From NCBI RefSeq assembly GCF_004570865.1, contig NZ_SPQS01000041.1:1-24000 (forward strand): 24,000 nt of DNA. The letters run 5' to 3'. Source of the DNA: Bradyrhizobium frederickii (GTDB lineage Bacteria > Pseudomonadota > Alphaproteobacteria > Rhizobiales > Xanthobacteraceae). Positions within the stretch are counted from its first letter, which is position 1, and every line of letters starts with the position of its first letter. The notes beneath the pieces were generated by a model. That model did no database searches. It had not been told where the DNA came from and saw only the letters and a program-made list of their open reading frames with translations. A program made the translations under genes and the position numbers. This document shows, one piece after another, positions 3,578-18,479 of this stretch.

Positions 3578-3694
3578 CGGCAACCCCGCGATGTTTGAGG
3601 CTGGGGGGCCGTGCGGACGACTTGCGAGGAGACCGGGCAAATATCACCAGTTGCAAGCAACCCACCGGGGCACCCCGCCCGAGGACGTTCGTTC

Positions 3695-4605: not shown

Positions 4606-4799
4606 TGAACAGCGCGATAAGTGGAGTTTCTGCCTGACGGCGGGCAAGATTGACCCGCGAATCAGGAGAGACGATGAGCAGACGAGCACGGCGGAACCAC
4701 ACTCCGGCTTTCAAGGCGAAGGTGGCACTTGCCACACCGAAGGGGCTTGAAGCTTACGCAGCGTCAGGTTGTATATTGGCCAACCTTCGTGATGTCTAA
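4606..4799 (+). mobile_element. IS3-family element left end with truncated orfA (41 codons)
   Basis: TGAACAGCGCGATAAGTGG at 4606 is a TG-initiated putative terminal inverted repeat. An AGGAGAG Shine-Dalgarno lies at 4663-4669, followed by the ATG at 4674. The ORF reads MSRRARRNHTPAFKAKVALATPKG..., the typical IS3 OrfA N-terminus (MSRR.RRNH.P.FKAKVA), then diverges and stops at 4797-4799. No orfB follows. A second TGAACAGCG copy lies at 4453. Confidence 0.55.
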
Positions 4800-5060
4800 G
4801 GGAGCAAAACGGCCGGGAATGGTAACCAGCGCTGGTGATGGACGACGAGACGCACCGCATATGATGCTCAGCTGCGCCACCGAGTTCGGTCCGCTGATCG
4901 TCTTCCATGCTGTGAATGCGAAATTCCAGTTGATGGCGGAGGCTCAATTCTCAGGGTGGGAGCAAGGGGTATCGCGGAGAAAGACTGCACCGCACCTACC
5001 TGGATTGGTGGCCGCCGAATCCAACCGTTGGTCTATGCTGGTCCTTCAGGACTTGCAGAT

Positions 5061-5080
5061 TTAGGAGAGATTAGGAGAGA
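5061..5080 (+). repeat. Perfect tandem duplication TTAGGAGAGA x2 upstream of pmoC
   Basis: Read directly from the sequence. It lies about 140 nt upstream of the pmoC start. Confidence 0.9.
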
Positions 5081-5217
5081 CGAGAATGGCCGCCTCAAGG
5101 AGGTAACCAGAAAGCTGGGAGCTTGAAGACAGATCATATCCTTTCGGTCAACGATCGGAGTGAGCATCACCCTCGTAGACAACATCACACCTTAGGCAAT
5201 CTCCAGGAGGAGACAAG

Positions 5218-6009
5218 ATGTCGATCACGATAACTCATAGCGCCAAGTCTGCCGCTGAGGACCGTACTCAGCCGTTGGGGAATTTCAAACTTGCAGCAGG
5301 AGTCACTCTGGCGGTGCTAGCGCTGATGGTGTTCTGGCGCATCTTTCAGCAGGTCTATGCTTGGAGTGCCGGCCTGGATTCGACTGAGCCCGCGTTCGAT
5401 GCCGCCTGGATGACGTTGCTGAAGGTTGAGCTTAGCGTCATCCCTTTGCTCTGGGTGGTGACCTGGGCGTATCTATGGTTCACGCGAGACCGCAATCTTG
5501 GCGCGCTCAAACCGCGGGAAGAGCTCCGGCGCTACTTCAATCTGGTCCTGTTCAACTTCGTCTATGCCTTTTGCGTCTGGTTCGCTACCAGCTTCTTTGC
5601 CGAGCAGGACGCCTCATGGCATCAGGTTGTGGTCCGGGATACAAGCTTCACGCCAAGTCACATCGTGCTGTTCTACGGCACCATGCCACTCTACGTGCTG
5701 TTTGGCGTGGGATCATTTCTGTACGCGATGACGAGGCTGCCGAAGTTCGCAACGCAGATCTCAATTCCATTCGTGCTCGCGGTTGTAGGTCCGTTTCTAA
5801 TATTGCCGAACTTGGGCTACAACGAGTGGGGTCATGCCTTCTTCCTGATGGAAGAGGTGTTCTCCTATCCCTTGCACTGGGGTTTTGTCGTGATGGGCTG
5901 GAGTGTGCTGGCCTTGGGTGGGCTCCTGATCCAGATCGCGATGCACATGCTTGAAGTGATCGGGCGGCTTTCTCAAGAGGACCAAGCTTCGGTCGCCACC
6001 CAGCGCTGA
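5218..6009 (+). CDS. pmoC: Copper membrane monooxygenase subunit C (PmoC/AmoC family)
   Basis: An AGGAGGAG Shine-Dalgarno precedes the ATG at 5218. The protein is polytopic. Hallmark blocks are EQDASWHQVVVRDTSFTPSHIVLFY and YNEWGHAFFLMEEVFSYPLHWGF. Metal ligands D131/H135/H148 and N202/H206/H220 have exactly the spacing of the M. capsulatus PmoC ligands. Confidence 0.95.
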   Translation: MSITITHSAKSAAEDRTQPLGNFKLAAGVTLAVLALMVFWRIFQQVYAWSAGLDSTEPAFDAAWMTLLKVELSVIPLLWVVTWAYLWFTRDRNLGALKPREELRRYFNLVLFNFVYAFCVWFATSFFAEQDASWHQVVVRDTSFTPSHIVLFYGTMPLYVLFGVGSFLYAMTRLPKFATQISIPFVLAVVGPFLILPNLGYNEWGHAFFLMEEVFSYPLHWGFVVMGWSVLALGGLLIQIAMHMLEVIGRLSQEDQASVATQR

Positions 6010-6129
6010 AACCGCTTATGAACCATTAATCGCGGACAGCCCGGCATGCAAAGCTGCCGTCTTGTAATCAGTCGGGCGTCGGCTTCCAGGAAGGTCGATC
6101 TCAACTCGGTAAAGAATTAGGAGGAAGCC

Positions 6130-6987
6130 ATGCAAGGAGGAACGTCTGTGAGACTGTATGGCCTCGAATGGCCTAAAGAGTCAGCAAGAATCTCAAGAGT
6201 GTTTGACCTTCTCGTCGCCGCTATCCTTTTTCTGGCCGTCTCCGGCGCATTCCACCTGCATTACATGCTGACCGCAGGGGACTGGGATATGTGGATCGAT
6301 TGGAAAGACAGACAGTGGTGGGTCACCCTGACTCCAATTATGGCCATAACATTCCCTGCAGCTTTGCAGTATGTGTTTTGGACGAAATTTAGACTTCCAA
6401 TCGCCGCTACATTTGCGGTCGTTTGTCTTCTGTTCGGTCAGTGGATAAATCGATATTTCGGTTTCCACCTGTGGTCGTACTTTCCGATGAGCGAGGTCAT
6501 TCCAGCGCTGCTGATACCTGGCGCACTAGTCCTCGATGTCGCTCTTTTGCTGACCGGGAATTTTCTGTTCACGGCGATGTCCGGCGCCTTTGCATTCGCA
6601 CTGCTTTTCTACCCGACTAACTGGTTTTGGCTGGCGCCATATCGGCTACCCGTAGAAGTGATGGGGCAGCTTGTTTCCGTGGGCGATTACATCAGCTATG
6701 CATTCACCCGCACCGCGCTGCCTGAGTATATCCGGCTGATAGAGCGGGGCACGCTTCGAACTTTTGGTGGCCACTCAGCCATTATCGCGTCCTTTTTCTC
6801 GGCGTTCGTATCCATACTGATGTATTTGGCGTGGTGGCATATCGGAATGCTCCTCGCTCGTGTGGTAACGACGCCAAACGCCCTGAAGCATTTCATGGGG
6901 CTCACCGATAAGGATGAGCCAGCTGAGGCAGCCCAAAAAGCGATAGACGGTACCAGCCTGCAAGGGCGCTCCGTCGCAGCCGAATGA
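6130..6987 (+). CDS. pmoA: Copper membrane monooxygenase subunit A (PmoA/AmoA family)
   Basis: A TAGGAGGA Shine-Dalgarno precedes the ATG at 6130. Hallmark blocks are HLHYMLTAGDWDMWIDWKDRQWW, GQWINRYFGFHLWSYFP and TALPEYIRLIERGTLRTFGG. There is a C-terminal extension of about 35 aa compared with the PmoA sequences I remember. Confidence 0.95.
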   Translation: MQGGTSVRLYGLEWPKESARISRVFDLLVAAILFLAVSGAFHLHYMLTAGDWDMWIDWKDRQWWVTLTPIMAITFPAALQYVFWTKFRLPIAATFAVVCLLFGQWINRYFGFHLWSYFPMSEVIPALLIPGALVLDVALLLTGNFLFTAMSGAFAFALLFYPTNWFWLAPYRLPVEVMGQLVSVGDYISYAFTRTALPEYIRLIERGTLRTFGGHSAIIASFFSAFVSILMYLAWWHIGMLLARVVTTPNALKHFMGLTDKDEPAEAAQKAIDGTSLQGRSVAAE

Positions 6988-7014
6988 TTCTGCTGGGACT
7001 GTGGAGGACTCCAA

Positions 7015-8337
7015 ATGAGAACATTCTGTTTCCACGAAAGCTCATGCGTGCGTGTAGTCTTATCGGCAGCGGCGGCGATCATGCAGATCGGAATACTGAT
7101 CTTCGTCCCAGATGCTGCTCTGGCGCATGGTGAGCGTAATCAGGAGCCGTTTCTGCGGATGCGAACGGCTCATTTTTACGATGTGAAGTGGAGCACGAAC
7201 GAAACTCCCGTGAACGGTGAAATCGTTGTCACCGGCAAGTTCCGACTCTTCCCGATCTGGCCAGTCAACCTACCCCTTCCCGAAGCGGCCTTTCTGGGAA
7301 ACGGGACGCCGGGCCCGGTGCTAGCCCGAACCGAGAGCTACATTAATGGCGTCCCTGCAATTCAGTCCACCAAACTGGAGTTGAACCGGGACTATGAATT
7401 CAAAACAGTGCTCAAAGGACGAGTGCCAGGCCACCATCACGTCCATCCGATGATCAACGTGATGGGAGCCGGGCCGCTGCTCGGACCGGGAAACTGGCTG
7501 ACGGTGACGGGGAACGAAAGCGACTTCAAGCTTTCAATCAAAACTCTCAGTGGCGAGACTATCGACAATCTCGAAACCTGGGGCCTTGGCAGGGTGTTCT
7601 TCTGGCATGGCTTGTGGGTTGCGATCGCCATCGTGTGGCTTGTCTGGTGGTTGCGCCGGCCGCTCCTGCTGCCTCGTTTTCGCGCGTTGACGGAAAAAGG
7701 CGGCGATCGATCTCAGCTCGTTACCAGCACCGATCGCCTATTCGGGGCCGGTTTGCTCGTGGCGACGATTCTCATCGTATTCTTCGGCTTTCAGGCGACC
7801 GACACCGCTTATCCAAGGACGGTGCCGCTGCAAGGGTCCCGCGCAACCGTCGAGCCCCTACCGGAAGTGCCTGAGCAGGTCAAAGTTGCGGTCAACAAGT
7901 CAAACTATGACGTCCCTGGCCGCTCGCTTCGTATGAACGTGACACTGACGAACAATGGGAGCTCGTCAGCACAGCTTGGCGAGCTCTTAACTTCCAATCA
8001 GCGCTTCATCAACCATGAGGTTAGCCAGGCAATGGCGACGGTGGATCCGAATTACCCCAAGGAATTGCTTCCTCCGAATGGGCTAAAGGTGAGCGACAGC
8101 CGACCGCTCAAGCCGGGTGAAACGAAGACAGTCGATATCGAAGCGGCCGACGCGGCATGGGAGACGGAGCGCTTGAGTAGCCTGATCAACGATCCGGACA
8201 ACACGTTGGGAGGACTGTTGTTCTTCTATGACGAGCACGGCAAGCGGACAATCTCAAACGTCAGCGGCCCCATGGTCCCTGTATTCACCGATCCCGACAA
8301 CCGCACGGCTGAGAATCCGACAGGAGGTGCGGGTTGA
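7015..8337 (+). CDS. pmoB: Copper membrane monooxygenase subunit B (PmoB/AmoB family)
   Basis: A GGAGGA Shine-Dalgarno lies upstream. The signal peptide ends ALA|HGERNQEPFLRMRTAHFYDVKWS. GHHHVHPMINVMGAGPLLGPGNW contains the H-x-H copper ligands. There are two internal TM helices (VFFWHGLWVAIAIVWLVWW and LFGAGLLVATILIVFFGF) and a C-terminal cupredoxin-like half. Confidence 0.95.
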   Translation: MRTFCFHESSCVRVVLSAAAAIMQIGILIFVPDAALAHGERNQEPFLRMRTAHFYDVKWSTNETPVNGEIVVTGKFRLFPIWPVNLPLPEAAFLGNGTPGPVLARTESYINGVPAIQSTKLELNRDYEFKTVLKGRVPGHHHVHPMINVMGAGPLLGPGNWLTVTGNESDFKLSIKTLSGETIDNLETWGLGRVFFWHGLWVAIAIVWLVWWLRRPLLLPRFRALTEKGGDRSQLVTSTDRLFGAGLLVATILIVFFGFQATDTAYPRTVPLQGSRATVEPLPEVPEQVKVAVNKSNYDVPGRSLRMNVTLTNNGSSSAQLGELLTSNQRFINHEVSQAMATVDPNYPKELLPPNGLKVSDSRPLKPGETKTVDIEAADAAWETERLSSLINDPDNTLGGLLFFYDEHGKRTISNVSGPMVPVFTDPDNRTAENPTGGAG

Positions 8338-8900
8338 ACACCGTAAAAGCCGCAGTGCTTGGAATTCCATCTTTGCTCCTCATCCTAGACTGCGGTGGGG
8401 CGCGGCCAGCGATTGCACACGGGGGAGTATCGATGGAGAAAGACGTGTGCAAGCTTCGCGCAGGGCCCTATATGATGCATTTTACCGGATACCAGCCGGT
8501 CAAGCAGGGGAATCAGGAGTTTTGCGAGGACATTCCGGAAATCGGCCGCACCGTCATCGTCTTGGATACCATCGGCGATGTGCTACGTGATCTGCCCATC
8601 GAGGTGCGGTTGTTGCGAGACGCCGGCAACGACGTAGACAGCGAGGCCGTCCTTCGAATCCCGCCAAAAAAATATCCGACAGGCTCACTATCGTTTCAGT
8701 ACACGTTCCCCGAATCCGGGCGCTTTGTGGGCCTCGTGACAGTCGGCGACGGACCGAAATACGTATCGAGATTTCCGTTTTCGGTTGGTTACGGCAACGG
8801 GATTTGGGTCCGATATAGGGACAGTTTCGCAATCGTTCTAGGAACGCTGGCAGCCGGGGCCGCCATGTTTTGGTACTCCACGTTGCGGAAGGAAACCTAG
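8334..8900 (+). CDS. PmoD/AmoD-like periplasmic copper protein with C-terminal membrane anchor (family assignment tentative)
   Basis: The TTG start overlaps the pmoB stop (TTGA at 8334-8337) and follows GGAGGTG at 8323-8329. The protein has a signal peptide (AIA|HGG), a beta-rich domain with exactly two Cys (C39, C64) and a C39-x7-M47-x-H49 motif, and a C-terminal TM helix (FAIVLGTLAAGAAMFWY). The existence of the ORF is well supported. The family call rests on architecture, motif and gene position. Confidence 0.7.
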   Translation: MNTVKAAVLGIPSLLLILDCGGARPAIAHGGVSMEKDVCKLRAGPYMMHFTGYQPVKQGNQEFCEDIPEIGRTVIVLDTIGDVLRDLPIEVRLLRDAGNDVDSEAVLRIPPKKYPTGSLSFQYTFPESGRFVGLVTVGDGPKYVSRFPFSVGYGNGIWVRYRDSFAIVLGTLAAGAAMFWYSTLRKET

Positions 8901-8944
8901 GCTATCACTTTGTCGACCGCTGACTTGCAATAAGGGGCACACGC

Positions 8945-9472
8945 ATGTCTCACGAAAAACACGGAAACAAGAGCGATTGCATCCGAGTAGCGACGGGGCC
9001 ATCACTTGATCATGCTGGCACGCCAAACTTGACCGCCGGCACCGGCAGGGCGCGAACTAGGCTGATTCAAGGGACGGTAAAAGAACTCTCGTCCGCAAGC
9101 AGGCGTCCGGTATCAGCGCTTGGCATCACGTTGCTGTGCGTTGGCCTCGTGTGCCTGCCGACAGCTGTCTCTGCACATGCCGCTCTCGTGAAGTCCGATC
9201 CCGCGAGCCGGGCAGTGTTAGCTCATTCGCCGCAGCAGATCGAACTGTGCTTCAACGAACGCATAGAGCTCAAGTTTTCGAAAGTGGAGCTCAAGAACGC
9301 CAACGGTCAGTCGCTAACGCTCGGCGATTTGAAAGCAGGCAATGATCCGAAGTGTATGGTAACGGCAGTATCTGACATTAGACCAGGCAGCTATTCGGTT
9401 CATTACCGCGTGCTCTCGCAAGACGGGCATGTGGTGGACTACGGCTATCAGTTCACCGTCGAGGAACGTTAG
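8945..9472 (+). CDS. copC: CopC-family periplasmic copper-binding protein
   Basis: An AAGGGG Shine-Dalgarno precedes the ATG at 8945. The hydrophobic segment ALGITLLCVGLVCLPTAVSA is followed by |HAALVKSDPA, the CopC N-terminal H-x-x-L-x-x-S-x-P signature. The C-terminal SQDGHVVDYGYQFTV is also typical. There is no Met-rich Cu(I) loop, so this is the Cu(II)-only type. An unusual cytoplasmic leader of about 55 aa precedes the hydrophobic segment, so the true start is uncertain. Confidence 0.85.
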   Translation: MSHEKHGNKSDCIRVATGPSLDHAGTPNLTAGTGRARTRLIQGTVKELSSASRRPVSALGITLLCVGLVCLPTAVSAHAALVKSDPASRAVLAHSPQQIELCFNERIELKFSKVELKNANGQSLTLGDLKAGNDPKCMVTAVSDIRPGSYSVHYRVLSQDGHVVDYGYQFTVEER

Positions 9473-9481
9473 GCATGCGGA

Positions 9482-11473
9482 ATGACGGTATTGTTTCCAG
9501 CTCTGTGCAAGGCCATCGCTGACATTGCGCTTGCATGGGTCATAGGCGGAGTACTCTTTCTGTTGCTGGCAGGGCCGTCTTCCGATCCGTTCCTTGCCGC
9601 TTGGCAAAGACGAGTGAAGGTGAGCTTTCTCTGGGCAGCCAGCATTCACCTCTTCGCTACCGCTGGGTTATTTATCGCTCAAGTCGTGGTTGCGACAGAT
9701 ATGGCACTACCGGAGATAGTAGCGTCTGGCCAGACGCTGGAAAACTTCGGATTTGACACACATTACGGTCGGATCACGCTTGCAAGGTTAGCGCTCTCTC
9801 TTGTTTTGCTGCTGCCGACAGCGATCCTAATTCGCGGCAGGTCGAGGGAGCAGCAACGTTCAGCTTCAATCGTGACAGCCGGGACAGCAGCACTGATCGC
9901 GCTGATTGGTCCACTTGCTGGACACGCCGCCGGGGAAGACGACAGCCGTTGGCTCGTTCCGACCTATCAACTTCACGTGCTCGCGGTTTCTGCTTGGCTT
10001 GGGGCCTTACCGGCTTGGATCTGGCTGGTGGCTTCGGTCGCTGTCACCCCCACGGAGACTCGGCGCGTTTATGTCGCAGCGACGCTGCGACGTTTCTCCC
10101 AACTAGCAATCGGTTTCGTGGTCGTCGTCGTCACATCAGGTTTGGTGCTCGCGTTTAGCTCAGCTAGTTCGGCTGGCGAGTGGCTTGGCACGACCTACGG
10201 TCAACTAATTATAACGAAGCTTGCTCTACTTGCATGCATCCTGTTGGTGGCCAATCGGATTCGCACGCGCTTCCTACCCGTCATGGAAACCGTAGGAGCA
10301 AAACCCGCGGCTTTTCTTGCAGGAGCTGGATGGGCAGCAACTGAATTATTTTGCGGTGTTCTGATCGTCGGCTGCGCAGCCGCGCTCTCTTCAGTCATAC
10401 CAGCACGACATGATCAGCCCATCTGGTGGCTGCCGTTTCGCTTTTCGATCGAGGCCACGTGGCCGGCGTGGCCGACGCCCGTTATCGCGGCGGGCGCCTT
10501 CTCACTAGCACTATTGTCACTCTTCTGGGGCCTGCTCGTTTGTTTGAGAAAGCCGCAAAAGGTAAAAGCAGTTGCAGCAAGCGCCGCCGCCGTTATTTCG
10601 GTCGTAGGCGGTCTGTCGCAGATATCCGTGCAAGCCTATCCCGATACTTACCGCCGCCCGTCGGTTGCCTATTCGACGATATCAATAACCAATGGAAAGC
10701 GTCTATTTGCCCAGAATTGTGCGGATTGCCACGGCAGCGGAGGGCTTGGCGATGGTCCGGCGGCATCGACCCTTCCCAAGCCGCCCGCGAATTTGAGCGA
10801 ACCGCATACTGCGCTGCACACGGCCGGCGACATGTTTTGGTGGCTTAGCCATGGAATTCCAAAAAGCGGCATGCCCGGATTTGCTGATGTATTGGACGAA
10901 CAGGCCCGCTGGGATGTGATCAACTTCCTGCGGACGTTTTCAGAGGGATTTCAGGCGCGCCTCCTGTCGCCTGAAATCGTACCCGATCATCCGTGGCTGG
11001 GGGCTCCCAATTTTTTCTTAGAGGACGAAAATGGGGCGGAGAGGGAGCTGAAGGACTTCCGTGAGCAAAGCAATGTGCTGCTCGTGTTTCCCGAAAAGTC
11101 CGATGCAATGCGCGTTGAACAGCTACGCCTTGAGCAGAATAGATTCCGGAAAGAACGATTGTGGGCGATTATCGTGTCGCCGGACGCAAAGCTGGCGGCG
11201 GGCGTCCCGAATGTCCGGCGTGGAGCACAAGAGGTTAGAGAAAGTTACGATCTGCTCTCCCGGAGCACTACAAATCGTGGAGATCCCAAGCGTTTGGAAA
11301 TGGGAAGACATTCCATGGAATTCCTAATCGACAGGTTCGGATACATCCGTGCGCGCTGGTTGCGGGAGGAGGACGAATGTGGTTGGGAAAATTCCGACGA
11401 GCTGATCTCGCGGGTCCGAGTTCTCAATAGAGAGCCCAAAATTCTCCCGCCAGCCGCTCAACATGTGCACTGA
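9482..11473 (+). CDS. copD: CopD-family membrane protein fused to a c-type cytochrome domain and a Cys-less thioredoxin/peroxiredoxin-fold domain
   Basis: The first ~395 aa are a multi-helix hydrophobic CopD-like domain located immediately after copC. Heme motif CADCH is at nt 10718-10732, with a distal Met candidate in KSGMPGF. The C-terminal ~150 aa read APNFFLEDENGAERELKDFREQSNVLLVF...SMEFLIDRFGYIRARW, an AhpC/TSA-like pattern, but the usual Cys position reads FPEKSDAMRVEQL. Confidence 0.8.
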   Translation: MTVLFPALCKAIADIALAWVIGGVLFLLLAGPSSDPFLAAWQRRVKVSFLWAASIHLFATAGLFIAQVVVATDMALPEIVASGQTLENFGFDTHYGRITLARLALSLVLLLPTAILIRGRSREQQRSASIVTAGTAALIALIGPLAGHAAGEDDSRWLVPTYQLHVLAVSAWLGALPAWIWLVASVAVTPTETRRVYVAATLRRFSQLAIGFVVVVVTSGLVLAFSSASSAGEWLGTTYGQLIITKLALLACILLVANRIRTRFLPVMETVGAKPAAFLAGAGWAATELFCGVLIVGCAAALSSVIPARHDQPIWWLPFRFSIEATWPAWPTPVIAAGAFSLALLSLFWGLLVCLRKPQKVKAVAASAAAVISVVGGLSQISVQAYPDTYRRPSVAYSTISITNGKRLFAQNCADCHGSGGLGDGPAASTLPKPPANLSEPHTALHTAGDMFWWLSHGIPKSGMPGFADVLDEQARWDVINFLRTFSEGFQARLLSPEIVPDHPWLGAPNFFLEDENGAERELKDFREQSNVLLVFPEKSDAMRVEQLRLEQNRFRKERLWAIIVSPDAKLAAGVPNVRRGAQEVRESYDLLSRSTTNRGDPKRLEMGRHSMEFLIDRFGYIRARWLREEDECGWENSDELISRVRVLNREPKILPPAAQHVH

Positions 11474-11516
11474 ACTAGTGGAAATCTTTCGGGGCTCGCA
11501 AACAAAGGAGGAAAGC

Positions 11517-12029
11517 ATGCAAATATCATCGCGTCCCAGCCGGGTTGGCGATCGATTCGAACAGTTCATTCGGTGCATGATTCTTGTAGCTGGCGCTCTG
11601 GTCGCGGCTCCAGCCCACGCACAACACCATGAGCCGGGCACACACCATATGCACGGGTCTGACGGTGCGCCTGTTGCGAGATCGGGAAATACCGGCGGGC
11701 TGCCTGCATTGAAGATCCTCCTGCCGCAATCGGGTAATACCATCGGCGAGCGTGTTGCTTTCGTTTTCCAAGCCGACGATAACATCGCAGAAATGACCAT
11801 GAGCTCTGCCAATCCGAGCGTTCATCTGCATGTTGCAATGGACGAAACCGAGCTAATGCCAATGGCAGACCAACTGATCCAGCTTGGTGATGGCCGCTAT
11901 CTCTATGTTTTCGATCTACCTGCCAAGCCTGGTCGGCACATAATAAGACTCTATTGGGCGGATCCGCAGCACCACACAATCTCCGAGACGGTACAGACCC
12001 TCAACGTGGTTGTGAAGGAATCAAAATGA
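11517..12029 (+). CDS. Secreted His/Met-rich protein with DUF4399-like beta-sandwich domain (tentative)
   Basis: I prefer the ATG at 11517, behind AAGGAGGAAAGC, over the upstream 11463 start. The signal peptide is FIRCMILVAGALVAAPAHA. The mature N-terminus is QHHEPGTHHMHGSDG. The pattern LKILLPQSGNTIGERVAFVF...VHLHVAMDE...LGDGRYLYVFDLPAKPGRHIIRLYWADPQHH resembles the DUF4399 pattern as I remember it (P.dG..v..pv.v.F...GHhHl.iD...G.te..l.L.pG.HtL.l..ad..H). Confidence 0.65.
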   Translation: MQISSRPSRVGDRFEQFIRCMILVAGALVAAPAHAQHHEPGTHHMHGSDGAPVARSGNTGGLPALKILLPQSGNTIGERVAFVFQADDNIAEMTMSSANPSVHLHVAMDETELMPMADQLIQLGDGRYLYVFDLPAKPGRHIIRLYWADPQHHTISETVQTLNVVVKESK

Positions 12030-12126
12030 GCAAGCCGTCAATCATTGGGGGCTTAGGTGTGAGCGTTATCAGGAAAGTCATGCGAGTGCGCTAGCTGATC
12101 CGGAAGGATTTTGGGGGAAGCTGCAC

Positions 12127-12793
12127 TCAACTCCTCGCGCATTCGCTCGCGCCCCGCTGACGTGGCAAAGTTATGCTCCGCTCTCGCCAATAATGGTGCG
12201 TCAGGAAATCCCGCCGCTTCTTCGCGTCAGAGATCCTGTCCTTCAGCGCTCCCTCGAAGCCGCTAAATTTTTCGACGCGCCTCATCAGGTTTCCCATCGT
12301 CTGGGTGAATTGGTCATCCATGAGGGCGTCGAAATCGCGCTCGTATTGCTTCCGGTCGAACCCCTTACCTTTCGTCGCGATGTAATCGTCGCGCGCCTTC
12401 TTCATGAATTGCGCAAACAAAAGCACGTGTGCCAGCGCGACCTCAACGACCGAGGGCGTGTAAACCGTGCGGCCGTAATAGGCGACTGTCTCTCCCTGAT
12501 TTCCCAAGCGTGGCGCGTTGCCGTTCGCCGCGATGCCGAACACCGAGTTGGCTATCTGCCAGCGGAAATCGATTTCGCCGCCGGGCGGCTCTGTTGTCGC
12601 ACCAGGACACCTCAGGGCAGGAGGCGGCGCACGGACCACATCGCCAGCGTTGACGAATTCCCAGCATCGACGGCCACTGCCACGATTGAAACCGATGTCA
12701 GAGCCGCTTCGCTCGCAGAGCCGCGCGGCCAGACCACCGACAGCTGCGGCCAGTAATATGAGGACTATTGTGCCCTGGAGCAGCCTTTTTCAT
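12127..12793 (-). pseudogene. Membrane-anchored hypothetical protein with HEPN-like R-x4-H motif; frame broken at an A5 run
   Basis: The long frame (12127-12789) encodes ..KRLLQGTIVLILLAAAVGGLAARL.., an N-terminal TM or signal segment, but has no start codon until the GTG at 12639. The only ATG with a purine-rich Shine-Dalgarno (12793, in ATGAAAAAGG) is one nucleotide out of frame. Removing one A gives MKRLLQGTIVLILL.... The C-terminal helical part ends with DAKKRRDFLTHHYWRE (RDFLTH = R-x4-H). Confidence 0.45.
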
Positions 12794-12874
12794 CCTTCTC
12801 GACCAAAATCCCAGGTCAACGTTCTTGACGGTCTTCACGCAACGCGGATGCATGCCATGCGTTTGTCTGCTTGA

Positions 12875-13762
12875 TCAATTGATAGGGTTGGTAGGTGCCT
12901 GGAGAGATTGTGTCCGCCTCTGGGAATGAATGGCTCGTCTTCGTCTGTGCGGATCAGACGTCAAGGGGGCTTCAGCGCTCTTGGCGGCAGCCGGCACCAG
13001 ATGCACGATCCGATACCCGTTCTGATGCAGGTAGCGCAGGAACGCAGGCAGCATGGCCGCCGTCCGCGTCTGCGCATCATACAGCAGAATGATGCCCCTA
13101 CGAGCGGCCTCGAGCCGCTCGATCAGGATTGTGAGCTCCTGCTCTGGAGTTATGTTCTCCCAATCGCTCGCCCAAAGGTCAGCTCCGAATACGACAATTC
13201 CGCGCGCCTGCAAGAGATCGAGCGTCGCAGGTGTCGCGTCGAAGTAGGGGAACCGGAAGAACGGTGTCGAGGGCATTTTGGTGGACAAACCGTTGAGCCC
13301 CATTTCGACCGCGGCGATACCGCGCTCGATGTCCTCTTTCGCCTGCTCGAACGAGATTTTCGACATCATCGGATGCGACCAGCTGTGGTGCGCTACGGTG
13401 TGCCCCTGGGCGGCCATACGCCGCACGAGTTCGGGAAATTCCGCCGAGGATCGGCCGACCAGAAAGAACGTGGCTCGCGCGCATTCCTGTGCGAGCGCAG
13501 CCAGCACCTTATCCGTGTTCGGCGACCGCGGTCCGTCATCGAAGGTGAGGACGACTTCATAGTCCGCCAGAGGAAGCGTCTCTGGAAAGTTCTTCAGCCC
13601 GACGCGCGGGAAGAGTGCGGCATTGACAGCGAGCACCCACGCCGTGCCGAGCGCATCCCGCCGATTGCAGCTAGAGGCGTCTGGCACGGCAGTACCGGCG
13701 AGCAACGCCAGCCCGGCGCAGCCGATGCGAAAAGCTAATCTAGGCAGGCGCAACTCTATCAT
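12875..13762 (-). CDS. Polysaccharide deacetylase (NodB-homology / CE4 family), secreted
   Basis: The protein has a signal-like N-terminus. CE4 motifs are present: VLTFDDGP (TFDD) and HSWSHP (H-S-x-x-H). The region ATFFLVGR...GHTVAHHSWSHP is typical of the family. Confidence 0.9.
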   Translation of the reverse strand: MIELRLPRLAFRIGCAGLALLAGTAVPDASSCNRRDALGTAWVLAVNAALFPRVGLKNFPETLPLADYEVVLTFDDGPRSPNTDKVLAALAQECARATFFLVGRSSAEFPELVRRMAAQGHTVAHHSWSHPMMSKISFEQAKEDIERGIAAVEMGLNGLSTKMPSTPFFRFPYFDATPATLDLLQARGIVVFGADLWASDWENITPEQELTILIERLEAARRGIILLYDAQTRTAAMLPAFLRYLHQNGYRIVHLVPAAAKSAEAPLTSDPHRRRRAIHSQRRTQSLQAPTNPIN

Positions 13763-14016
13763 TGCGCGTTAGTGCGACCTCGATCGGTTGGTGAGCCCCG
13801 TGGTGCTCAGCAGACTATCTGATCGGCATCGCGGGATTTCGGCGCATCGAGGCTGTGTCGTGCGCAAAAAGGTCGTCGAACGTCCGTTATCCGCTCGAAC
13901 CGCTCCCGCTGCCTGACTTGCTTGAGCGGCGCGTAGGCCGCTTAGCTTTGACAATCGCTGCTGTTCGTCTGCCGCAAGATCAGTGCACCCCGCGTCTGCA
14001 GCACGCGCGGCGCGTG

Positions 14017-14250
14017 TCAGCGGGTATGACGGCGTACCCCTTGGCAGTTCCGGGTATTCGAACTCTGATGATCTTCACTGCCGCGACGTATATTTCCAGA
14101 TCGGCTTGTGAGAGGCCGGGACGGCCTGGATAAACACCCGAGCTGACGAGTGAACGGCAGATGTCTCACGAGGCTCGTCGAGCAACGCAGCAGTTGAGCA
14201 GCTTCGCTTTCCGTCCACATCTGCGAGTTCGGTTTGATTCTGCGCTTCAT
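14017..14250 (-). pseudogene. Possible AlpA/excisionase-type HTH gene remnant (frame broken)
   Basis: The ATG at 14250 reads MKRRIKPNSQMWTESEAAQLLRCSTSLVRHL, an HTH-like pattern (..EAA.LL..S.S.....). A second frame continues ..GRPGLSQADLEIYVAAV, resembling the C-terminal DLE.Y of excisionase-family proteins. The evidence is weak. Confidence 0.25.
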
Positions 14251-14544
14251 CGCGCGATTCAAACACGGTGCACCTTTTGTGTGTCGATATAACTAATTGC
14301 TCAATACGTGTTATACAAAATAATACAACTTAAACGGTGACATGGCCGAATGGCATTTCCTATTGTCGCGATGAGGTCCAGAAAACCTCGTACGGCAGGC
14401 GGAATAGTTTTTCCCCAAACTCCGGAGTCCTCGGGCGTATGTCCAGTGGCGCAAGCCTAAAGGCGCGAGGGAGCGCCTGTCGTTGCTTATTTCTGGCTCC
14501 GGACGACTATCTCGATCTCAGGAAGATCGACGGAGAATACGACA

Positions 14545-14769
14545 GTGAAAGCGGTAACAAAACAGAAGGCAGACAGAGCTTGCGCCAAAGAGTTGAAGAT
14601 TTTGGCGCGGGTCGAAAAGGATCTCGAAAATGCACGCGACTCCGGAGCGGTTGAAGACGTCTTCCTTGGGCTTGAGGAAATCTACTCGATGCACATGCAC
14701 ACCGAGCATCAAAGCGTCCGAGCAAGATGCGAAGCCATCTTGCGCGCCGGCAGTTTGCCGAAGGCGTAA
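14545..14769 (+). CDS. Small hypothetical protein (74 aa, charged/helical)
   Basis: GTG start with GGAGA 9 nt upstream. The composition is protein-like (MKAVTKQKADRACAKELKILARVEKDLENARDSG...). I recognise no family. Confidence 0.35.
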   Translation: MKAVTKQKADRACAKELKILARVEKDLENARDSGAVEDVFLGLEEIYSMHMHTEHQSVRARCEAILRAGSLPKA

Positions 14770-14865
14770 CTGACGATCGTAGAGCGCTCTACGCATTTGA
14801 GCAACGAGGCGGGCAAAGCCGGCATCTGATGGCCCCGGCACGCTCCTAAAAGGTGATAATAACCC

Positions 14866-15051
14866 GTGCGAGACCTGATCATCGAAGCCTTTGACAGCGT
14901 CATCCGCCGCGAGATCGCGGAAGCGGACGACGTTCGCAAGGAAATCGCCCAGCGCGGCGCCTATTGGGCCGGCGACCAGCTATGGAAGCTGCGCCGCCAA
15001 GTCGCCGCGCTGCGCAAGCGTATCGCCGAGGTTGAAGAAACCGACGCGTGA
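14866..15051 (+). CDS. Small hypothetical coiled-coil-like protein (61 aa)
   Basis: GTG start behind AAGGTGA. The sequence is MRDLIIEAFDSVIRREIAEADDVRKEIAQRGAYWAGDQLWKLRRQVAALRKRIAEVEETDA. I recognise no family. Confidence 0.35.
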   Translation: MRDLIIEAFDSVIRREIAEADDVRKEIAQRGAYWAGDQLWKLRRQVAALRKRIAEVEETDA

Positions 15052-15149
15052 TCTCAGCAGACCGCGAGTATCGCCAAGCAGCGCGAGAGGTCAAAGAGCG
15101 CGACTACCTTAGACAAGCCGAATTGGATTATCGACCTAGTCCGGCCGCA

Positions 15150-15400
15150 GATCGGTCATCTTCAGACCGGCGCCATCACGTCATCAGACGTGCTGGCGGC
15201 GCTTCGCAACGTGGAGGCAACTGGCCGGCATTGAAAGCGAGCCGGTACGAAACGACAAAGCGATGCCGGGCGCCCCTTAGCCGCGTATTCTCATACGCAG
15301 TCGCGAAGGACCTGCGCTAATTCGACCCGGCTGCGGCGTTTGCGAAGTCGGGCCACCTGACGCCGCCGAAACGGAGAACTAGCGAAGGCTGGGGATAGTC
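15150..15400 (+). pseudogene. P4-type tyrosine integrase, N-terminal/SAM-like-domain fragment with frameshift and in-frame stop
   Basis: Read across two frames: ..IGHLQTGAITSSDVLAALRNVEATGRH, then ..ETTKRCRAPLSRVFSYAVAKDLR*FDPAAAFAKSGHLTPPKRR. This matches the integrase pattern lG...i..It..dv...l..ie..G..etA.R.r..l..vF.yAva.g....DPa..l......ppk. No catalytic domain follows. Confidence 0.5.
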
Positions 15401-15404
15401 AAAA

Positions 15405-15426
15405 TGGTGCCGCTGAGGGGATTGAA
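15405..15426 (-). other. tRNA 3'-end-like sequence (possible att scar of an integrative element)
   Basis: The minus strand reads TTCAATCCCCTCAGCGGCACCA. This parses as T-loop/T-stem 3' half (..AATCCCCT), a 7-nt acceptor 3' strand CAGCGGC (implying G1-C72), discriminator A, and CCA. No 5' half or cloverleaf is present. It directly abuts the truncated integrase fragment. Confidence 0.35.
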
Positions 15427-15845
15427 AGCTAAATACAAGGGCTTGATAACTGATATCAATTTCTAAAATAACTCGGCGACATACCAACGTCGCTACGAAC
15501 ACGCCCCGAACGCTTGCGGAGATTTGCCGGGGATAACGCCAGCGGGAGCATGCCCGGCCAATGACGGCGCGTGTAATGTGCACTTGCACAACCGGGGGCG
15601 GAGCATGGTACCTGACTACGCGTTCACCGCAGGCACAATTGCTTTTGCAGGGGTCGGAATAGGAGCTCTCGCCCGCCGCGCTACTGAAACGGGTGCACGG
15701 CCACGGCGAGGATGAATAACGCCAGCGCCGCTTCAATGAACTACCGCTTCTTTATCGAGGCCGGCCAGCTGCTGATCGAAGATCGCGGGTCGCCGCTTTC
15801 AGGCGGCTAGGGCTTTCTTCGCATGATATCTTTTTTGACGATTGG

Positions 15846-16289
15846 GTGTCTCGCGCACAGGGTGAGAGCGATCGTCGACGCTATTTGATTGCGGCTAAGA
15901 TTGATGAAGTCAGCCGTGAGACGCGCGCCGAGGAAGCAGCGCGGAAGCGCGGGTGGATAGCGTCAGCCCGAATGGCCTTCCAACCTAGGCGACGCGAAGC
16001 CTGCTTCGTTTGCGGCAAATTCCAGTCCATCTCTCAGGCTCATCATGTTGTGCCATTGGGCGAGCAGTTCGACCGAGGGTTTTCGGTCGCCAACCACGAG
16101 CACGAGTTCCTGTGCCCCAACCATCACGCAATCCTCAACCTCTGGATTGATGACGACATCTCCCACCAGCGGCGCGGCCGGCGCGCCGCTCCCACGTTTG
16201 AGGATCTAACGAATGAAGAGGTGGAGCGAATGTTTCAACTGTCAGGTCGCGCTGGGCCAGTGAACGCAACAGCGAAGGGAACGGAATGA
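15846..16289 (+). CDS. HNH endonuclease-domain protein
   Basis: CFVCGKFQSISQAHHVVPL...ANHEHEFLCPNHHAIL has the C-x2-C ... H-H ... N ... C-x-N-H-H layout of HNH / zinc-finger nucleases. The GTG start lacks a clear Shine-Dalgarno, so the start is uncertain. Confidence 0.7.
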   Translation: MSRAQGESDRRRYLIAAKIDEVSRETRAEEAARKRGWIASARMAFQPRRREACFVCGKFQSISQAHHVVPLGEQFDRGFSVANHEHEFLCPNHHAILNLWIDDDISHQRRGRRAAPTFEDLTNEEVERMFQLSGRAGPVNATAKGTE

Positions 16290-16504
16290 ACCGACTGCAG
16301 AAATTCGTTGAACGAGGCGCCTTCGGAGAAGGTCCCGGTCGCACCGCCTACGTGCTCAATCCGATGAAGCTGCCCGATCCGAGCCGCGGCTTCGAATGGC
16401 ACATCGTGGGCGACTTCTTGCCTGGCGAGGCCATCCTCGCGGACCCTGGGCTAAAGCAAGTATACGAGGTGCCACTGAAACGCGGCTGCGCGGCGGTGGC
16501 CTGA
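16286..16504 (+). CDS. Hypothetical protein (72 aa), translationally coupled to the HNH gene
   Basis: Its ATG overlaps the HNH stop (ATGA at 16286-16289). The composition is protein-like. I recognise no family. Confidence 0.5.
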   Translation: MNRLQKFVERGAFGEGPGRTAYVLNPMKLPDPSRGFEWHIVGDFLPGEAILADPGLKQVYEVPLKRGCAAVA

Positions 16505-17268
16505 TGAAGAGCGACCGCTTTCCCTATGAAGCCTCGCGTTGGTCCCCGGCGCAGCCAGATCAAGCCAAACGATGGTTCGAAGAACTGGAAACGCAAAGTC
16601 CGCTGAACGTCCGCAACAGACTGACGCAAACCGACGCCGGCCCAGCCGGCGCGGTTACGATCGGAACGACGGAAATGACGATCGGCTTCGCCGAAGACTG
16701 GTTAGCGTGGCACGATCGCAAGCGAGAGGCATCCGAAGACAAACGACACAGGAAGCACTGGCTCGATTGGGCCGGGTGGGTGGTTGCGGTGATATCAATG
16801 TGCATTGCCGCGTTCACGACCTATCGCACGGTTCTTATCCAACGCGACGACATCCGTGTCGTTGTCGACGGTGTCCTGCGCGGCGCCGACGAGATTGCTA
16901 CCTATCTTTACGGCGAAGGGCAGGATTCTAGTGCTCTGATCGATGGCTACGTAGGTGTTCCCTTTAGTCAGCTGACGGACCACATCCCCGGTGTCACTGG
17001 CGCCTCGCAAGTCGATTTTGATTTATCAATGAAATTTCTCGATGACGCCGAGTTGGTAAAAATAGGGCCTATGGAAATGTACGACAATCCACCGGGCAGC
17101 CGCGTAATCGTTCTGGGTTTCTACAGCAAGCGTGAGTACGCGTACCTCACAGAGACGGGGTATCGAGTACCGACTGATGGCCGCAGGCGCGCCATCATCG
17201 CGAGCCAGAGCCGCGCAAATCCACATTTCCGGGGTCACATTTCACCAATCACAAATAGCTCTTGGTGA
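16504..17268 (+). CDS. Hypothetical single-pass membrane protein (254 aa)
   Basis: I prefer the ATG at 16504, which overlaps the upstream stop (TGATG), over the ORF-track start at 16396. There is one central TM helix (WAGWVVAVISMCIAAFTTY) between two soluble domains. I recognise no family. Confidence 0.55.
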   Translation: MKSDRFPYEASRWSPAQPDQAKRWFEELETQSPLNVRNRLTQTDAGPAGAVTIGTTEMTIGFAEDWLAWHDRKREASEDKRHRKHWLDWAGWVVAVISMCIAAFTTYRTVLIQRDDIRVVVDGVLRGADEIATYLYGEGQDSSALIDGYVGVPFSQLTDHIPGVTGASQVDFDLSMKFLDDAELVKIGPMEMYDNPPGSRVIVLGFYSKREYAYLTETGYRVPTDGRRRAIIASQSRANPHFRGHISPITNSSW

Positions 17269-17700
17269 GCGCGTGGCCCAGCAACAGCGCATTGAGGATG
17301 TGAATGATGCCGAAGTTGTTGAGCGTCTCGCGCAGCTTCTTTCAGCTTTGCGACTGCACTACGGCCATCACGACGGCGGTCGGCTTCCCGCGTGTAGCGT
17401 TCCGCTTCGGCGAGCGTCACTTCCTGGGCGGTCGCGCCAGCGTCAGCGAGCAGACGACCGAGGGTCTTGTGCAAACCGTGCGACTTACAGTCGAGCGGGA
17501 ACCCGGCCGCCGTCATGGCGTCCCGCATCCATCCTGAGAACCCGTCGACCGTGAACGGCTTGCCATACTCGGTGTTGATAATCGTGACGTGTTGCCGCGA
17601 CCACTTCGGTCCTAGGCACGGCGGTTACTCCTATGAGCACAGCCAGCTCGAACAGTTGCAGGCCGAGGTTTAATATGACAGGCACGCCGGGATGCGGCAA
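17235..17700 (-). pseudogene. Tyrosine recombinase (phage integrase family) C-terminal fragment, degraded
   Basis: Two minus-strand frames read ..ELAVLIGVTAVPRTEVVAATRHD.. and ..INTEYGKPFTVDGFSGWMRDAMTAAGFPLDCKSHGLHKTLGRLLADAGATAQEVTLAEAERYTREADRRR. The conserved HGLRK box reads HGLHK. The G-H box normally present between ...EI and TL..A.RYT is missing. Confidence 0.6.
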
Positions 17701-17710
17701 CCCACTGGTG

Positions 17711-17840
17711 CAGGTAGGTGCCCTCCGGTACTTTTCGACGACTTGTTTGGTAGCCCCCTTGGGAATTTAAGCCTCTCGGGAGCGAGCGCGGTCGGCTTTG
17801 CTACCAGACGGAACGCTGGCCGTGTTGAAGTTAACGGTGC
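17711..17840. repeat. Copy 1 of a ~130-nt imperfect direct repeat
   Basis: It shares CAGGTAGGTGC (11/11), CCCTTGGGAATTTAAGCCTCTCGGGAGC (26/28) and GAAGTTAACGG (10/11), in the same order and spacing as copy 2 at 18351-18479. Confidence 0.8.
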
Positions 17841-17985
17841 GTGGCAGAGACAGCGCTTATCGGTCCACTTTCAAGCGCCAGTCACTTCGCCGCTAACTTC
17901 ACTGGCAGCGCGGGCGTGGCAGCGACAGCGTCTGATGACCGGTGTCGAGTCGCGCCCGCGCTGCCTACGGTCACTGAGATTGAGA

Positions 17986-18291
17986 TCATTCGGGGCACTC
18001 GGGTAGGAGCGGGAGAACATTGTCTGGTTGAATGTCGTCGGCCGTTGTCTTGACGTACTTGTGCCCGTTGTGCGTGGCCCCAACCACACCAACCCTGCGT
18101 CCATTTTCTTCGACATAGAACTCCCATTCGGCGCTCTCGATATCTTTGACAACTTGGTCGATGGATCGCTTCCACGGCTTTCCATCGGGGTTTACTCCGC
18201 CGACATGTGTTATTCTTTCGTGAGGATTCTTTCTGCCCGTCTTGTTGGCGTAACGAATGCGTGCGCGTTTGGCCACTTGAGTCTCTCCCAA
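17986..18291 (-). CDS. DUF3892 domain protein
   Basis: The 101-aa protein reads ..ERITHVGGVNPDGKPWKRSIDQVVKDIESAEWEFYVEENGRRVGVVGATHNGHKYVKTTADDIQPDNVLPLLPEC. This matches the DUF3892 pattern as I remember it (I..vgg......w..s...ai..Ie.g...fyv...g..v.V.vv....kYl.T..D....dNLl.LPeC). Confidence 0.75.
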   Translation of the reverse strand: MGETQVAKRARIRYANKTGRKNPHERITHVGGVNPDGKPWKRSIDQVVKDIESAEWEFYVEENGRRVGVVGATHNGHKYVKTTADDIQPDNVLPLLPECPE

Positions 18292-18350
18292 ATCTGCAAG
18301 CCTGAGGCACTAGCTTAGACCGGAGCAGTCAATTCGACCGGCTGCCAATT

Positions 18351-18479
18351 CAGGTAGGTGCTTCCAGTCCTTCTCAGCGATACTCCTTGATCGCACCCCT
18401 TGGGAATTTGAGCCTTTCGGGAGCAAAGGTGGCCAGCCTCGGTCTTCGAGGACGGGCTGGCCACCGAAGTTAGCGGCTC
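18351..18479. repeat. Copy 2 of the ~130-nt imperfect direct repeat; contains a strong hairpin
   Basis: See copy 1. In addition, GGTGGCCAGCC (18428-18438) pairs perfectly with GGCTGGCCACC (18455-18465), and there is an inner CCTCG/CGAGG stem. Confidence 0.8.

Follow-up and report, generated by a model that had tools for sequence, protein, structure and literature searches.

A CopD-type protein with a predicted built-in cytochrome c and a thiol-free thioredoxin-fold domain in a copper monooxygenase cluster of Bradyrhizobium frederickii

Copper membrane monooxygenases (CuMMOs) drive the oxidation of methane, ammonia, and short alkanes. We know of no settled account of how these enzymes obtain their copper, nor of how they are supplied with electrons. 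CopD proteins are putative importers acting with CopC, and it is a stated open question whether the Cu(II) bound by CopC is reduced, and at what place (PMC12362106; PMC8689200). A CuMMO cluster of Bradyrhizobium frederickii raises this question in a particular form. Its copC is directly followed by an open reading frame (ORF), which an earlier note, made from the sequence alone, had read as a fusion of a CopD membrane domain, a c-type cytochrome, and a peroxiredoxin (Prx)-fold domain. Hereafter, the window is the whole analyzed stretch of 24,000 nucleotides (nt; RefSeq assembly GCF_004570865.1, contig NZ_SPQS01000041.1, positions 1 to 24,000, forward strand), and the fusion is the protein encoded at 9482-11473 on its plus strand. 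What is this protein, and what would it do beside a monooxygenase? The analysis describes a variant of CopD, with a predicted built-in cytochrome, a thioredoxin-fold domain specific to its family, and a terminal His-x-His, for which we propose a role in copper supply.

The window region 9482-11473 is one unbroken ORF of 663 codons, starting 9 nt after the end of copC. Its product is a 100% match to Bradyrhizobium WP_126261868.1, found in B. frederickii, B. niftali, B. cajani, B. uaiense, and others, which NCBI names either 'c-type cytochrome' or 'CopD family protein'. For close relatives, entries in NCBI and JGI/IMG also read 'putative copper export protein/mono/diheme cytochrome c family protein/peroxiredoxin'. 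The 663 residues form three modules, namely a ten-helix CopD membrane part, a class I cytochrome c, and a C-terminus of thioredoxin/peroxiredoxin fold without the catalytic cysteine. The unusual length of the ORF could point to an artefact, in which an indel has fused separate copD, cytochrome, and redoxin genes. We regard this explanation as refuted, with next to no probability left to it, as against it stand the identical 663-residue protein in several independent Bradyrhizobium assemblies, the collinear architecture common to 73 complete genomic copies and to the 713 homologous 90%-identity clusters that the full-length query retrieves at E ≤ 1e-3, and the nature of the short matches, which are N-terminal truncations starting within transmembrane (TM) helices. 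With the identical protein in several species and one contiguous architecture in the 73 complete homologues, the gene is a real one and no product of frameshift. Hence, the single ORF of three modules holds as the earlier note had described it, and the splitting indel that it had named as fatal to the idea was not found.

The membrane part is recognizably CopD. Pfam CopD (PF05425) matches residues 200-302 with 58.9 bits against a cut-off of 32.1, and residues 7-307 align to positions 5-294 of the 295 positions of NCBIfam CopD (NF033808), i.e. to the full length of that profile. The NF033808 score is 91.4 bits against an equivalog cut-off of 195, which is below the level of canonical copper homeostasis CopD, and we assign the CopD part of the fusion to a divergent subfamily. 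The AlphaFold2 (AF2) model and hydropathy agree on ten predicted TM helices. TM1-8 correspond to the canonical CopD core, and are followed by a conserved periplasmic loop (residues 305-331, ARHDQPxWWLPFR) and an extra hairpin of TM9-10. Loops 31-47, 119-126, 187-204, 257-274, and 356-362 are rich in Lys and Arg; those on the opposite side (73-93, 147-157, 229-237, and 305-331) have acidic or neutral character, with His148 and His310 among their residues. Positive-inside analysis predicts an N-out/C-out topology with residues 381-663 in the periplasm. Attachment of c-type haem occurs only outside the cytoplasm, and together with the topology this places both soluble domains in the periplasm, the side on which the earlier note had asked whether they lie. 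The chain is already periplasmic after TM8, so that the TM9-10 hairpin is an addition unneeded for topology. Conservation was read by aligning the query to 73 complete genomic members, which belong to the Alpha-, Beta-, and Gammaproteobacteria and to the Nitrospirota. Across these 74 sequences, H148, H165, W172, K246, E288, H310, W315, and R320 are invariant in the CopD part and its loop.

The cytochrome domain carries the haem motif C413-A-D-C416-H417 at nt 10718-10732 and a distal ligand candidate, M464 of KSGMPGF, at nt 10871-10873. Both elements, which the earlier note had already pointed out, are invariant. Pfam Cytochrom_C (PF00034) matches residues 403-485 with 58.5 bits against a cut-off of 21.3, and PF13442 also matches. 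The residues conserved in 74/74 sequences are C413, C416, H417, H442, H446, D450, W454, M464, W477, and D478, and the motif PH442TALH446TxGD is likewise invariant. With CxxCH, a distal Met, and a profile score above the cut-off, the domain classifies as a class I cytochrome, for which covalent haem and redox activity are predicted. Its nearest solved relative is cytochrome c552 of Thioalkalivibrio paradoxus (PDB 7o9u/9vr0; phmmer E = 3e-16), with which Foldseek gives a TMt of 0.74, a root mean square deviation of 1.9 Å, and 38% identity over the aligned region. The two proteins share the H..H..GD segment, both His of PHTALHT, and the MPGF motif of the distal Met. The c552 has His-rich disordered termini and a copper enzyme as its redox partner; different from the fusion, it is a soluble stand-alone protein with neither a CopD nor a Prx-like domain. 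Electrons pass between it and the copper centres of thiocyanate dehydrogenase, a tri-copper enzyme for which it serves as electron acceptor in vitro (PMC9456337). H442/H446 had been considered as a firm copper site; this assignment was dropped, being weakened by the presence of both His in the soluble c552.

The third domain is more divergent at the profile level. For the isolated residues 492-663, AhpC-TSA (PF00578) gave a sub-threshold match (E = 0.0019; 18.6 bits against a gathering cut-off of 26), so that of the three domain searches proposed earlier, those for CopD and the cytochrome exceeded their cut-offs and this one stayed below. PF00578 is on record for many relatives, with at least one such match flagged as weak. 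A single-sequence phmmer search of the isolated domain against the PDB gave no significant match. A 25-sequence family profile matches the 1-Cys peroxiredoxin AhpE at E = 2e-4, pairing NVLLVF with NVLLVFF and EFLIDRFGYIR with TFVVDRSGIIR, and placing the peroxidatic Cys of AhpE opposite a gap. The AF2 model of the domain alone, with a predicted local distance difference test (pLDDT) score of 87.7 and a predicted TM-score (pTM) of 0.86, has a thioredoxin-type βαβ core, as does the full-length model. Foldseek matches it to 470 PDB chains at E ≤ 1e-3 with TM-scores of 0.5-0.7. The best match is Bcp4 (E = 2.4e-7), and others are AhpE, Prx1, ResA (TMt up to 0.71), and BsSco (1xzo), with E-values from 2e-7 to 1e-5 for Bcp4, AhpE, and Prx1. 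The third domain is accordingly modelled with a thioredoxin-type fold, which upholds the Prx-fold module of the earlier note.

The same fold is found in working thiol peroxidases (Bcp/PrxQ and AhpE), thiol-disulfide oxidoreductases (TlpA/ResA), and copper chaperones (Sco1/SenC), and one could take the domain for any of these in view of the fold matches to Bcp, AhpE, ResA, and Sco, the weak AhpC-TSA match, and the JGI label 'peroxiredoxin' of relatives. The strand EFLIDRFGYIR with its AhpE counterpart adds to the likeness. For the window protein, however, an active thiol is refuted by the absent cysteines, and we deem it very improbable. The segment that would hold the PxxxTxxC peroxidatic Cys reads FPEKSDAMRVEQL, which departs from that motif, in keeping with the earlier claim of a dead peroxidase; neither the CxxC of TlpA/ResA nor the CxxxC plus distal His of Sco1/SenC occurs in the domain. 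Apart from C633, the only Cys of the domain and not a conserved one, the last 170 residues of the window protein have none; 55 of the 73 genomic homologues have no Cys there, and no Cys of the domain is conserved in the family. Instead of these motifs, the domain has invariant Arg and a C-terminal His-x-His. Its invariant residues are R544, R594, D617, R623, R625, and W626. The point that remains on the side of an active thiol is a Beijerinckiaceae subclade of Methylocella/Methylocapsa-type metagenome-assembled genomes (MAGs; related loci L047, L050, L053, L060, and L073), which keeps two Cys in the Prx-like domain, one in LLFSC after the first core strand and the other in GKTC about 35 residues later. 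The Cys-free state is therefore not family-wide, and the label 'Cys-less' given by the earlier note fits the active-site position of the window protein and most of the family, but not this subclade.

In all 74 aligned full-length members, the protein ends in His-x(1-2)-His-COOH after a Pro-rich stretch, typically as PPPDDHVH, with H661 invariant. The tails of the Beijerinckiaceae subclade are HSQH or HDH rather than HVH, and the pair of copC and fusion is not beside the CuMMO genes xmoCAB there. The tail has low pLDDT in the full-length AF2 model, whose overall pLDDT is 87.5 and pTM 0.78. Only residues 307-311, 443-445, and the C-terminal tail fall below a pLDDT of 50, and each of these segments holds one invariant His. 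In the model, they may represent metal sites that become ordered depending on ligand. We consider the terminal His-x-His, the invariant His of the periplasmic loops, the two extra TM helices, and the neighbouring genes for PmoD and the protein termed orfX the most telling features of the system; the earlier note had none of them.

The fusion is not confined to Bradyrhizobium, and belongs to a conserved family whose members have about 640-700 residues. Among the matches listed for the full-length query, nearly all are 620-670 residues long with the same domains, and a scan of one genome per GTDB species gave at least 451 stretches confirmed by tblastn. For the C-terminal domain alone, a word-indexed homologue search returned 17 matches, mostly fragments, and was replaced by an exhaustive profile search. 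Against 1.84 billion representatives, the profile of the Prx-like domain matches 475 proteins at E ≤ 1e-3 and 289 at E ≤ 1e-10. The full-length ones have 600-750 residues with the domain ending at the last residue, and the shorter ones are truncations, since they begin inside CopD TM helices. Thus, the Prx-like domain appears essentially specific to the CopD-cytochrome fusion, at the C-terminus of which it resides. A search with the protein of the Nitrospirota locus L077 gave 945 matches at E ≤ 1e-20; the best 120 of these 945 are all Nitrospira-type, with no named protein of Methylosinus or of betaproteobacterial ammonia-oxidizing bacteria (beta-AOB) among them. Judged by its sequence, the 'CopD' of comammox Nitrospira belongs to the same three-domain family. 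The fusion is not a unique protein but the standard 'copD' of many extended CuMMO clusters, those of comammox Nitrospira included.

We inspected the neighbourhood of the fusion in 80 related genomic loci. Directly upstream lies copC in 75/80, and the other five have little or no upstream sequence. A complete xmoCAB is within 10 kb in 38 loci, which are 38 of the 50 informative ones. Among the 42 loci without it, 30 are cut by contig ends and 12 have at least 8 kb on both sides; most Nitrospira contigs other than L077 end before xmoCAB could appear. A PmoD-like gene is present in 48/80 loci and an orfX-like gene stands beside the fusion in 39/80. Carriers with xmoCAB nearby are Solimonas, Nevskia, Panacagrimonas, Stagnimonas, Polaromonas, Rhodoferax, Methylibium, Aquabacterium, and a Nitrospirota MAG (L077), so that the taxa with an xmoCAB-linked fusion include comammox Nitrospira, alkane-oxidizing Betaproteobacteria, and Nevskiales. 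The survey thus bears out the link to CuMMOs; the earlier note would have given up its idea had the fusion been widespread and unlinked, and it is widespread yet linked. The 12 loci with long flanks and no complete xmoCAB comprise Methylocapsa acidiphila B2, a related MAG, Methylocella-type, unclassified alphaproteobacterial, and Hyphomicrobiales MAGs, Cycloclasticus 46_120_T64, where flagellar genes lie on one side of the pair and pilus genes on the other, and B. diazoefficiens SZCCT0138. In M. acidiphila B2 (L058, 15054-16845) and in L064, a lone pmoC with an adjoining PmoD-like gene lies downstream of the copC-fusion pair, at a distance of about 4 kb. Between them are, among others, a LysR regulator and a DUF2165 gene, and GlnD and OmpW are conserved upstream, GlnD also in L047. 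In B. diazoefficiens SZCCT0138 (L075, 8500-17000), a trio of copC, fusion, and orfX, 40% identical, has no xmoCAB within 10 kb, and is flanked by a pyrroloquinoline quinone (PQQ)-dependent dehydrogenase with an SBP-cytochrome c protein and by a 2Fe-2S/molybdopterin/flavin adenine dinucleotide hydroxylase. Either a CuMMO is encoded elsewhere in that genome, or the trio serves another enzyme. The constant partner of the fusion is copC, not xmoCAB, which speaks more for a role in copper handling than for passing electrons to the enzyme.

How does the fusion compare with known systems? Extended pmo/amo operons with pmoD, copC, copD, and sometimes PCuAC have been described, CopC and CopD are common in other prokaryotes as well, and disruption of pmoD causes a copper-dependent growth defect (PMC6189053). 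The copCD of comammox bacteria have been taken as copper-uptake genes between amo operons (PMC13374858; bioRxiv 10.1101/138586), and CuMMOs of unknown function have been noted in Bradyrhizobium and Solimonas (PMC6215863). The window has the gene order of such operons, with CuMMO genes followed by a PmoD/AmoE-like gene, copC, and copD (PMC6189053; PMC13374858), as in pmoCAB-pmoD-copC-copD-PCuAC of Methylosinus trichosporium OB3b and amoCAB-amoED-copCD of beta-AOB and comammox Nitrospira. For Methylosinus and beta-AOB the likeness lies in operon order, and for comammox Nitrospira it extends to the three-domain CopD. Two differences stand out: the last gene in the window is the His-rich orfX instead of PCuAC, and the literature consulted treats copD as an ordinary copper transporter, with no mention of a haem or Prx-like domain. 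Our full-text searches found no description of either domain on CopD, a provisional result as two key papers were outside their coverage. The fusion, plain 'copD' in the searchable literature, appears uncharacterized as an architecture, as the earlier note had supposed, though it is no one-off but a conserved family already labelled by annotation pipelines.

Canonical CopCD (Pseudomonas CopCD and E. coli YobA/YebZ) share with the fusion the CopD Pfam domain above cut-off, the 8-TM core, and the upstream CopC. The fusion scores well below the NCBIfam equivalog cut-off (91 versus 195 bits), and exceeds canonical CopD by a conserved loop in the periplasm, two TM helices, and some 280 further residues on the periplasmic side, which make up the cytochrome c, the Prx-like domain, and the His tail. 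YcnJ of Bacillus subtilis (CopC-CopD-YtkA) and CtiP of Corynebacterium (CopD-CtaG) also join a CopD core to accessory domains for copper acquisition or cuproenzyme assembly, and thus set a precedent for CopD with extra extracytoplasmic domains; their accessory domains are other ones, with no redox cofactor in either. By analogy only, and with no homology, the fusion recalls the Fre/STEAP reductases ahead of Ctr1, and the cytochrome of cellobiose dehydrogenase that reduces the His-brace Cu(II) of lytic polysaccharide monooxygenases. The common principle is a reductase before the permease: a haem domain reduces Cu(II), even when held by a His brace, and so enables the next step. We know of no bacterial CopCD-linked reductase that has been demonstrated.

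On balance, we lean towards reading the fusion as a redox-equipped CopD that is dedicated to the copper supply of the CuMMO cluster, with the tethered haem most likely reducing the Cu(II) held by CopC. This reading builds on the invariant CopC partner, on the polar residues kept in the CopD core, and on the haem and the invariant His all facing the periplasm. The presence of the fusion in many CuMMO clusters suggests a copper supply with a built-in redox step. Periplasmic CopC would take up Cu(II) at a His-brace site, consistent with its mature N-terminal His, its DxH motif, and its want of a Met-rich Cu(I) site. The tethered c-type haem, charged from the periplasmic cytochrome pool, would then reduce Cu(II) to Cu(I) and thereby loosen the tight hold of CopC. 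Flexible periplasmic His, i.e. H148, H310, possibly H442/H446, and the terminal H661-x-H663 arm, could take over Cu(I) and move it on to the CopD core, which would import the copper or else give it laterally or periplasmically to PmoD, orfX, or the monooxygenase (XmoC/XmoB). The thiol-free Prx-like domain may serve as the platform of the His-x-His arm, its Arg-rich surface docking a partner or the haem propionates. We infer all of this chemistry, and the interpretation of the earlier note is therefore supported in part: the domains, the periplasmic site, the dead peroxidase, and the CuMMO link are borne out by the analysis, and the coupling of Cu(II)/Cu(I) chemistry to copper delivery is still a proposal.

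Several points weigh against the proposal of a haem-driven copper supply. For the whole family, its basis consists of sequences and models, and the direction of electron or copper flow is not given by sequence alone. The H442/H446 pair may be structural and not a copper site, as it also occurs in the soluble c552. With its two Cys, the Beijerinckiaceae subclade raises the possibility that the Prx-like domain may not be purely structural everywhere. The 12 loci with flanks of at least 8 kb and no complete xmoCAB, one of them the B. diazoefficiens paralogue beside a PQQ alcohol dehydrogenase, indicate that the fusion is not strictly a CuMMO accessory. Copper and electrons might also run the opposite way. 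CopD would then send cytoplasmic Cu(I) out, and the haem would oxidize it to Cu(II) for the Cu(II)-only CopC and the monooxygenase, or for detoxification, in which case the fusion would be a functional counterpart, bound to the membrane, of PcoA/CueO in their action on PcoC. The CopC of the window looks Cu(II)-only, and a His/Met class I cytochrome is, by textbook knowledge, typically of high potential and suited to oxidizing Cu(I). Moreover, the nearest solved relative c552 accepts electrons from Cu(I) centres (PMC9456337), and the copper of some periplasmic cuproenzymes first passes through the cytoplasm (PMC8689200). The genetics of CopCD, YcnJ, and YebZ, however, point to uptake and not export (PMC8689200; PMC12362106), the clusters contain no terminal acceptor, and linkage to a copper-demanding enzyme together with the low-copper lifestyle of comammox fits acquisition better. 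We therefore rate this reversed flow as rather unlikely, though worth keeping in view.

A different possibility is that the cytochrome relays electrons to a CuA-like PmoD or to XmoB/XmoC, with the CopD part acting mainly as an anchor and docking unit. The fusion shares its operon with xmoCAB and, two genes upstream, with a PmoD that has a CuA-type Cx7MxH...C motif; transfer from cytochrome c to CuA is the canonical pairing of haem-copper oxidases, and fused cytochromes c are found in caa3 and in CcoP, the latter also appearing among the search matches. The TM9-10 hairpin, topologically unneeded, could be a docking element, and we know of no established physiological reductant of CuMMOs, which counts in the same direction. 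Gene neighbourhood speaks for copper instead. The constant neighbour is copC (75/80), as opposed to xmoCAB (38/80) and pmoD (48/80), and in Beijerinckiaceae and Cycloclasticus the copC-fusion pair is apart from any complete xmoCAB. The invariant polar and His residues of the CopD core argue against a mere anchor, and gammaproteobacterial methanotrophs, Methylococcus for instance, are not known to have copCD in their pmo operons. Electron relay in this form is improbable in our estimate. An estimate of similar kind, and a shade more sceptical, applies to the tethered cytochrome as the long-sought electron entry to CuMMOs, which would run via PmoD, the His-brace copper of XmoB, or both, the CopD core together with TM9-10 providing the docking, or to a fusion that metallates the enzyme and then re-reduces it.

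If the fusion indeed reduces the copper of CopC, it would give a testable answer to where CopC-bound Cu(II) gets reduced, a question of the CopC/CopD field, and, among bacteria, would be the first case of a copper permease with a metalloreductase of its own. Irrespective of mechanism, the 'copD' of many CuMMO operons turns out to be a predicted haem protein with a periplasmic set of His and a thiol-free thioredoxin-fold domain. The operons concerned are those of comammox Nitrospira, alkane-oxidizing Betaproteobacteria, Nevskiales, and Bradyrhizobium; methanotrophs of the Beijerinckiaceae carry the pair away from xmoCAB. Two questions become accessible to experiment, namely how CopC-bound Cu(II) is mobilized and how CuMMOs are metallated or reduced. 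They concern groups of environmental weight, among them comammox Nitrospira, Beijerinckiaceae methanotrophs, and alkane oxidizers. The conserved accessory set of five proteins (PmoD, CopC, the fusion as CopD*, orfX, haem) calls for co-expression in the heterologous reconstitution of CuMMOs.

Table 1. Domains of the fusion and genes of its cluster in the window, with the evidence for each
Feature	Position	Strand	Evidence
CopD membrane domain, aa 1-380	9482..10621	+	CopD profiles, AF2 helices, hydropathy and positive-inside rule
Class I c-type cytochrome domain (predicted), aa 385-494	10634..10963	+	PF00034, PF13442, phmmer, Foldseek
Thioredoxin/peroxiredoxin-fold domain (predicted), peroxidatic Cys absent, aa 495-655	10964..11446	+	Profile and fold evidence
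C-terminal tail ILPPAAQH661VH663 and stop codon; Pro-rich spacer, then His-x-His-COOH	11447..11473	+	
xmoC, CuMMO subunit C	5218..6009	+	Pfam AmoC E=1e-93; NCBIfam AmoC_BACT 380 bits
xmoA, CuMMO subunit A	6130..6987	+	Pfam AMO E=2e-94; identical protein in several Bradyrhizobium species
xmoB, CuMMO subunit B	7015..8337	+	Pfam Monooxygenase_B E=7.5e-141
pmoD/amoE-like gene	8334..8900	+	phmmer to PDB 6cpd (PmoD) E=9e-19; motif from translation
copC; CopC domain aa 78-175 (nt 9176-9469)	8945..9472	+	Pfam CopC 79 bits
orfX, 170-aa periplasmic protein with signal peptide	11518..12029	+	

The cluster around the fusion is an extended CuMMO operon, with xmoC, xmoA, xmoB, a PmoD with Cx7MxH...C, copC, and copD in collinear order (Table 1), an order that recurs in 38 related loci and in L081 and L082. 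The PmoD homologue has a cupredoxin-type periplasmic domain with this motif (CKLRAGPYMMH ... FCED) and a C-terminal TM helix. CopC has a predicted mature N-terminal His (AVSA|HAALVKSDP), a DGH motif (QDGHVV), and one Met in the mature domain. Its N-terminal His and DxH, and the missing Met-rich Cu(I) site, match the Cu(II)-only type and make it a putative member thereof, in a classification scheme reportedly due to Lawton et al. 2016. The listed copC ORF has an extension of 77 residues (8945-9175) before the cleavage site AVSA|H. As the CopC homologues of the related loci L081 and L082 have 124-136 residues, the true start is probably an internal codon downstream of 8945. For orfX, the start at 11518 is preferred over the listed 11463 owing to AAGGAGG at 11506-11512. 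The mature N-terminus of orfX, QHHEPGTHHMHG, is rich in His and Met. Among families, orfX matches only DUF4399, weakly (17.6 bits, below the cut-off of 28), and it has no PDB match; it is probably another periplasmic copper-binding component. It holds the place of PCuAC in Methylosinus operons, and is located upstream of copC in Polaromonas, Rhodoferax, and Methylibium. Between 4000 and 13000, scanning for promoters and terminators turned up no signal beyond what shuffled sequence would give.

The seven genes from xmoC to orfX form a block. Only the window region of about 4733-12093 is shared with B. uaiense and B. niftali (L001 1181-8152 and L002 5249-12612, with 97-98% nt identity), the flanks differ, and the shared block is exactly these seven genes. 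Its GC content is 53-58%, and that of the ribonucleotide reductase genes beside it (576-3640, minus strand) is 61-65%. Two further sequences have the same seven-gene order. One is plasmid CP026373 of Sphingobium sp. SCG-1 (L081), where the genes have an integrase on one side and an IS66 transposase on the other; the second is a metagenomic contig of 746 kb. A tblastn search of the PLSDB plasmids gave no match, though NCBI has the Sphingobium plasmid copy. Since the seven-gene block alone is shared between Bradyrhizobium species and has lower GC than its flanks, it looks like a discrete, transferable CuMMO module that was acquired horizontally. As to the enzyme, the NCBIfam bacterial AmoA, AmoB, and AmoC equivalog models all pass their cut-offs in 5218-8337, and NCBI therefore names it ammonia monooxygenase (AMO). 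This name may mislead. The Bradyrhizobium CuMMO is listed as an enzyme of unknown function (Khadka 2018).

Downstream of the module, 12193-12756 (+) and 12127-12639 (-) overlap, and either strand could be coding. Beyond them are genes for a polysaccharide deacetylase (12875-13762, minus strand) and for a protein with a Fic/DOC domain (21339-22877), along with several ORFs without a Pfam family. None of the genes in 12030-24000 is conserved in the related loci.

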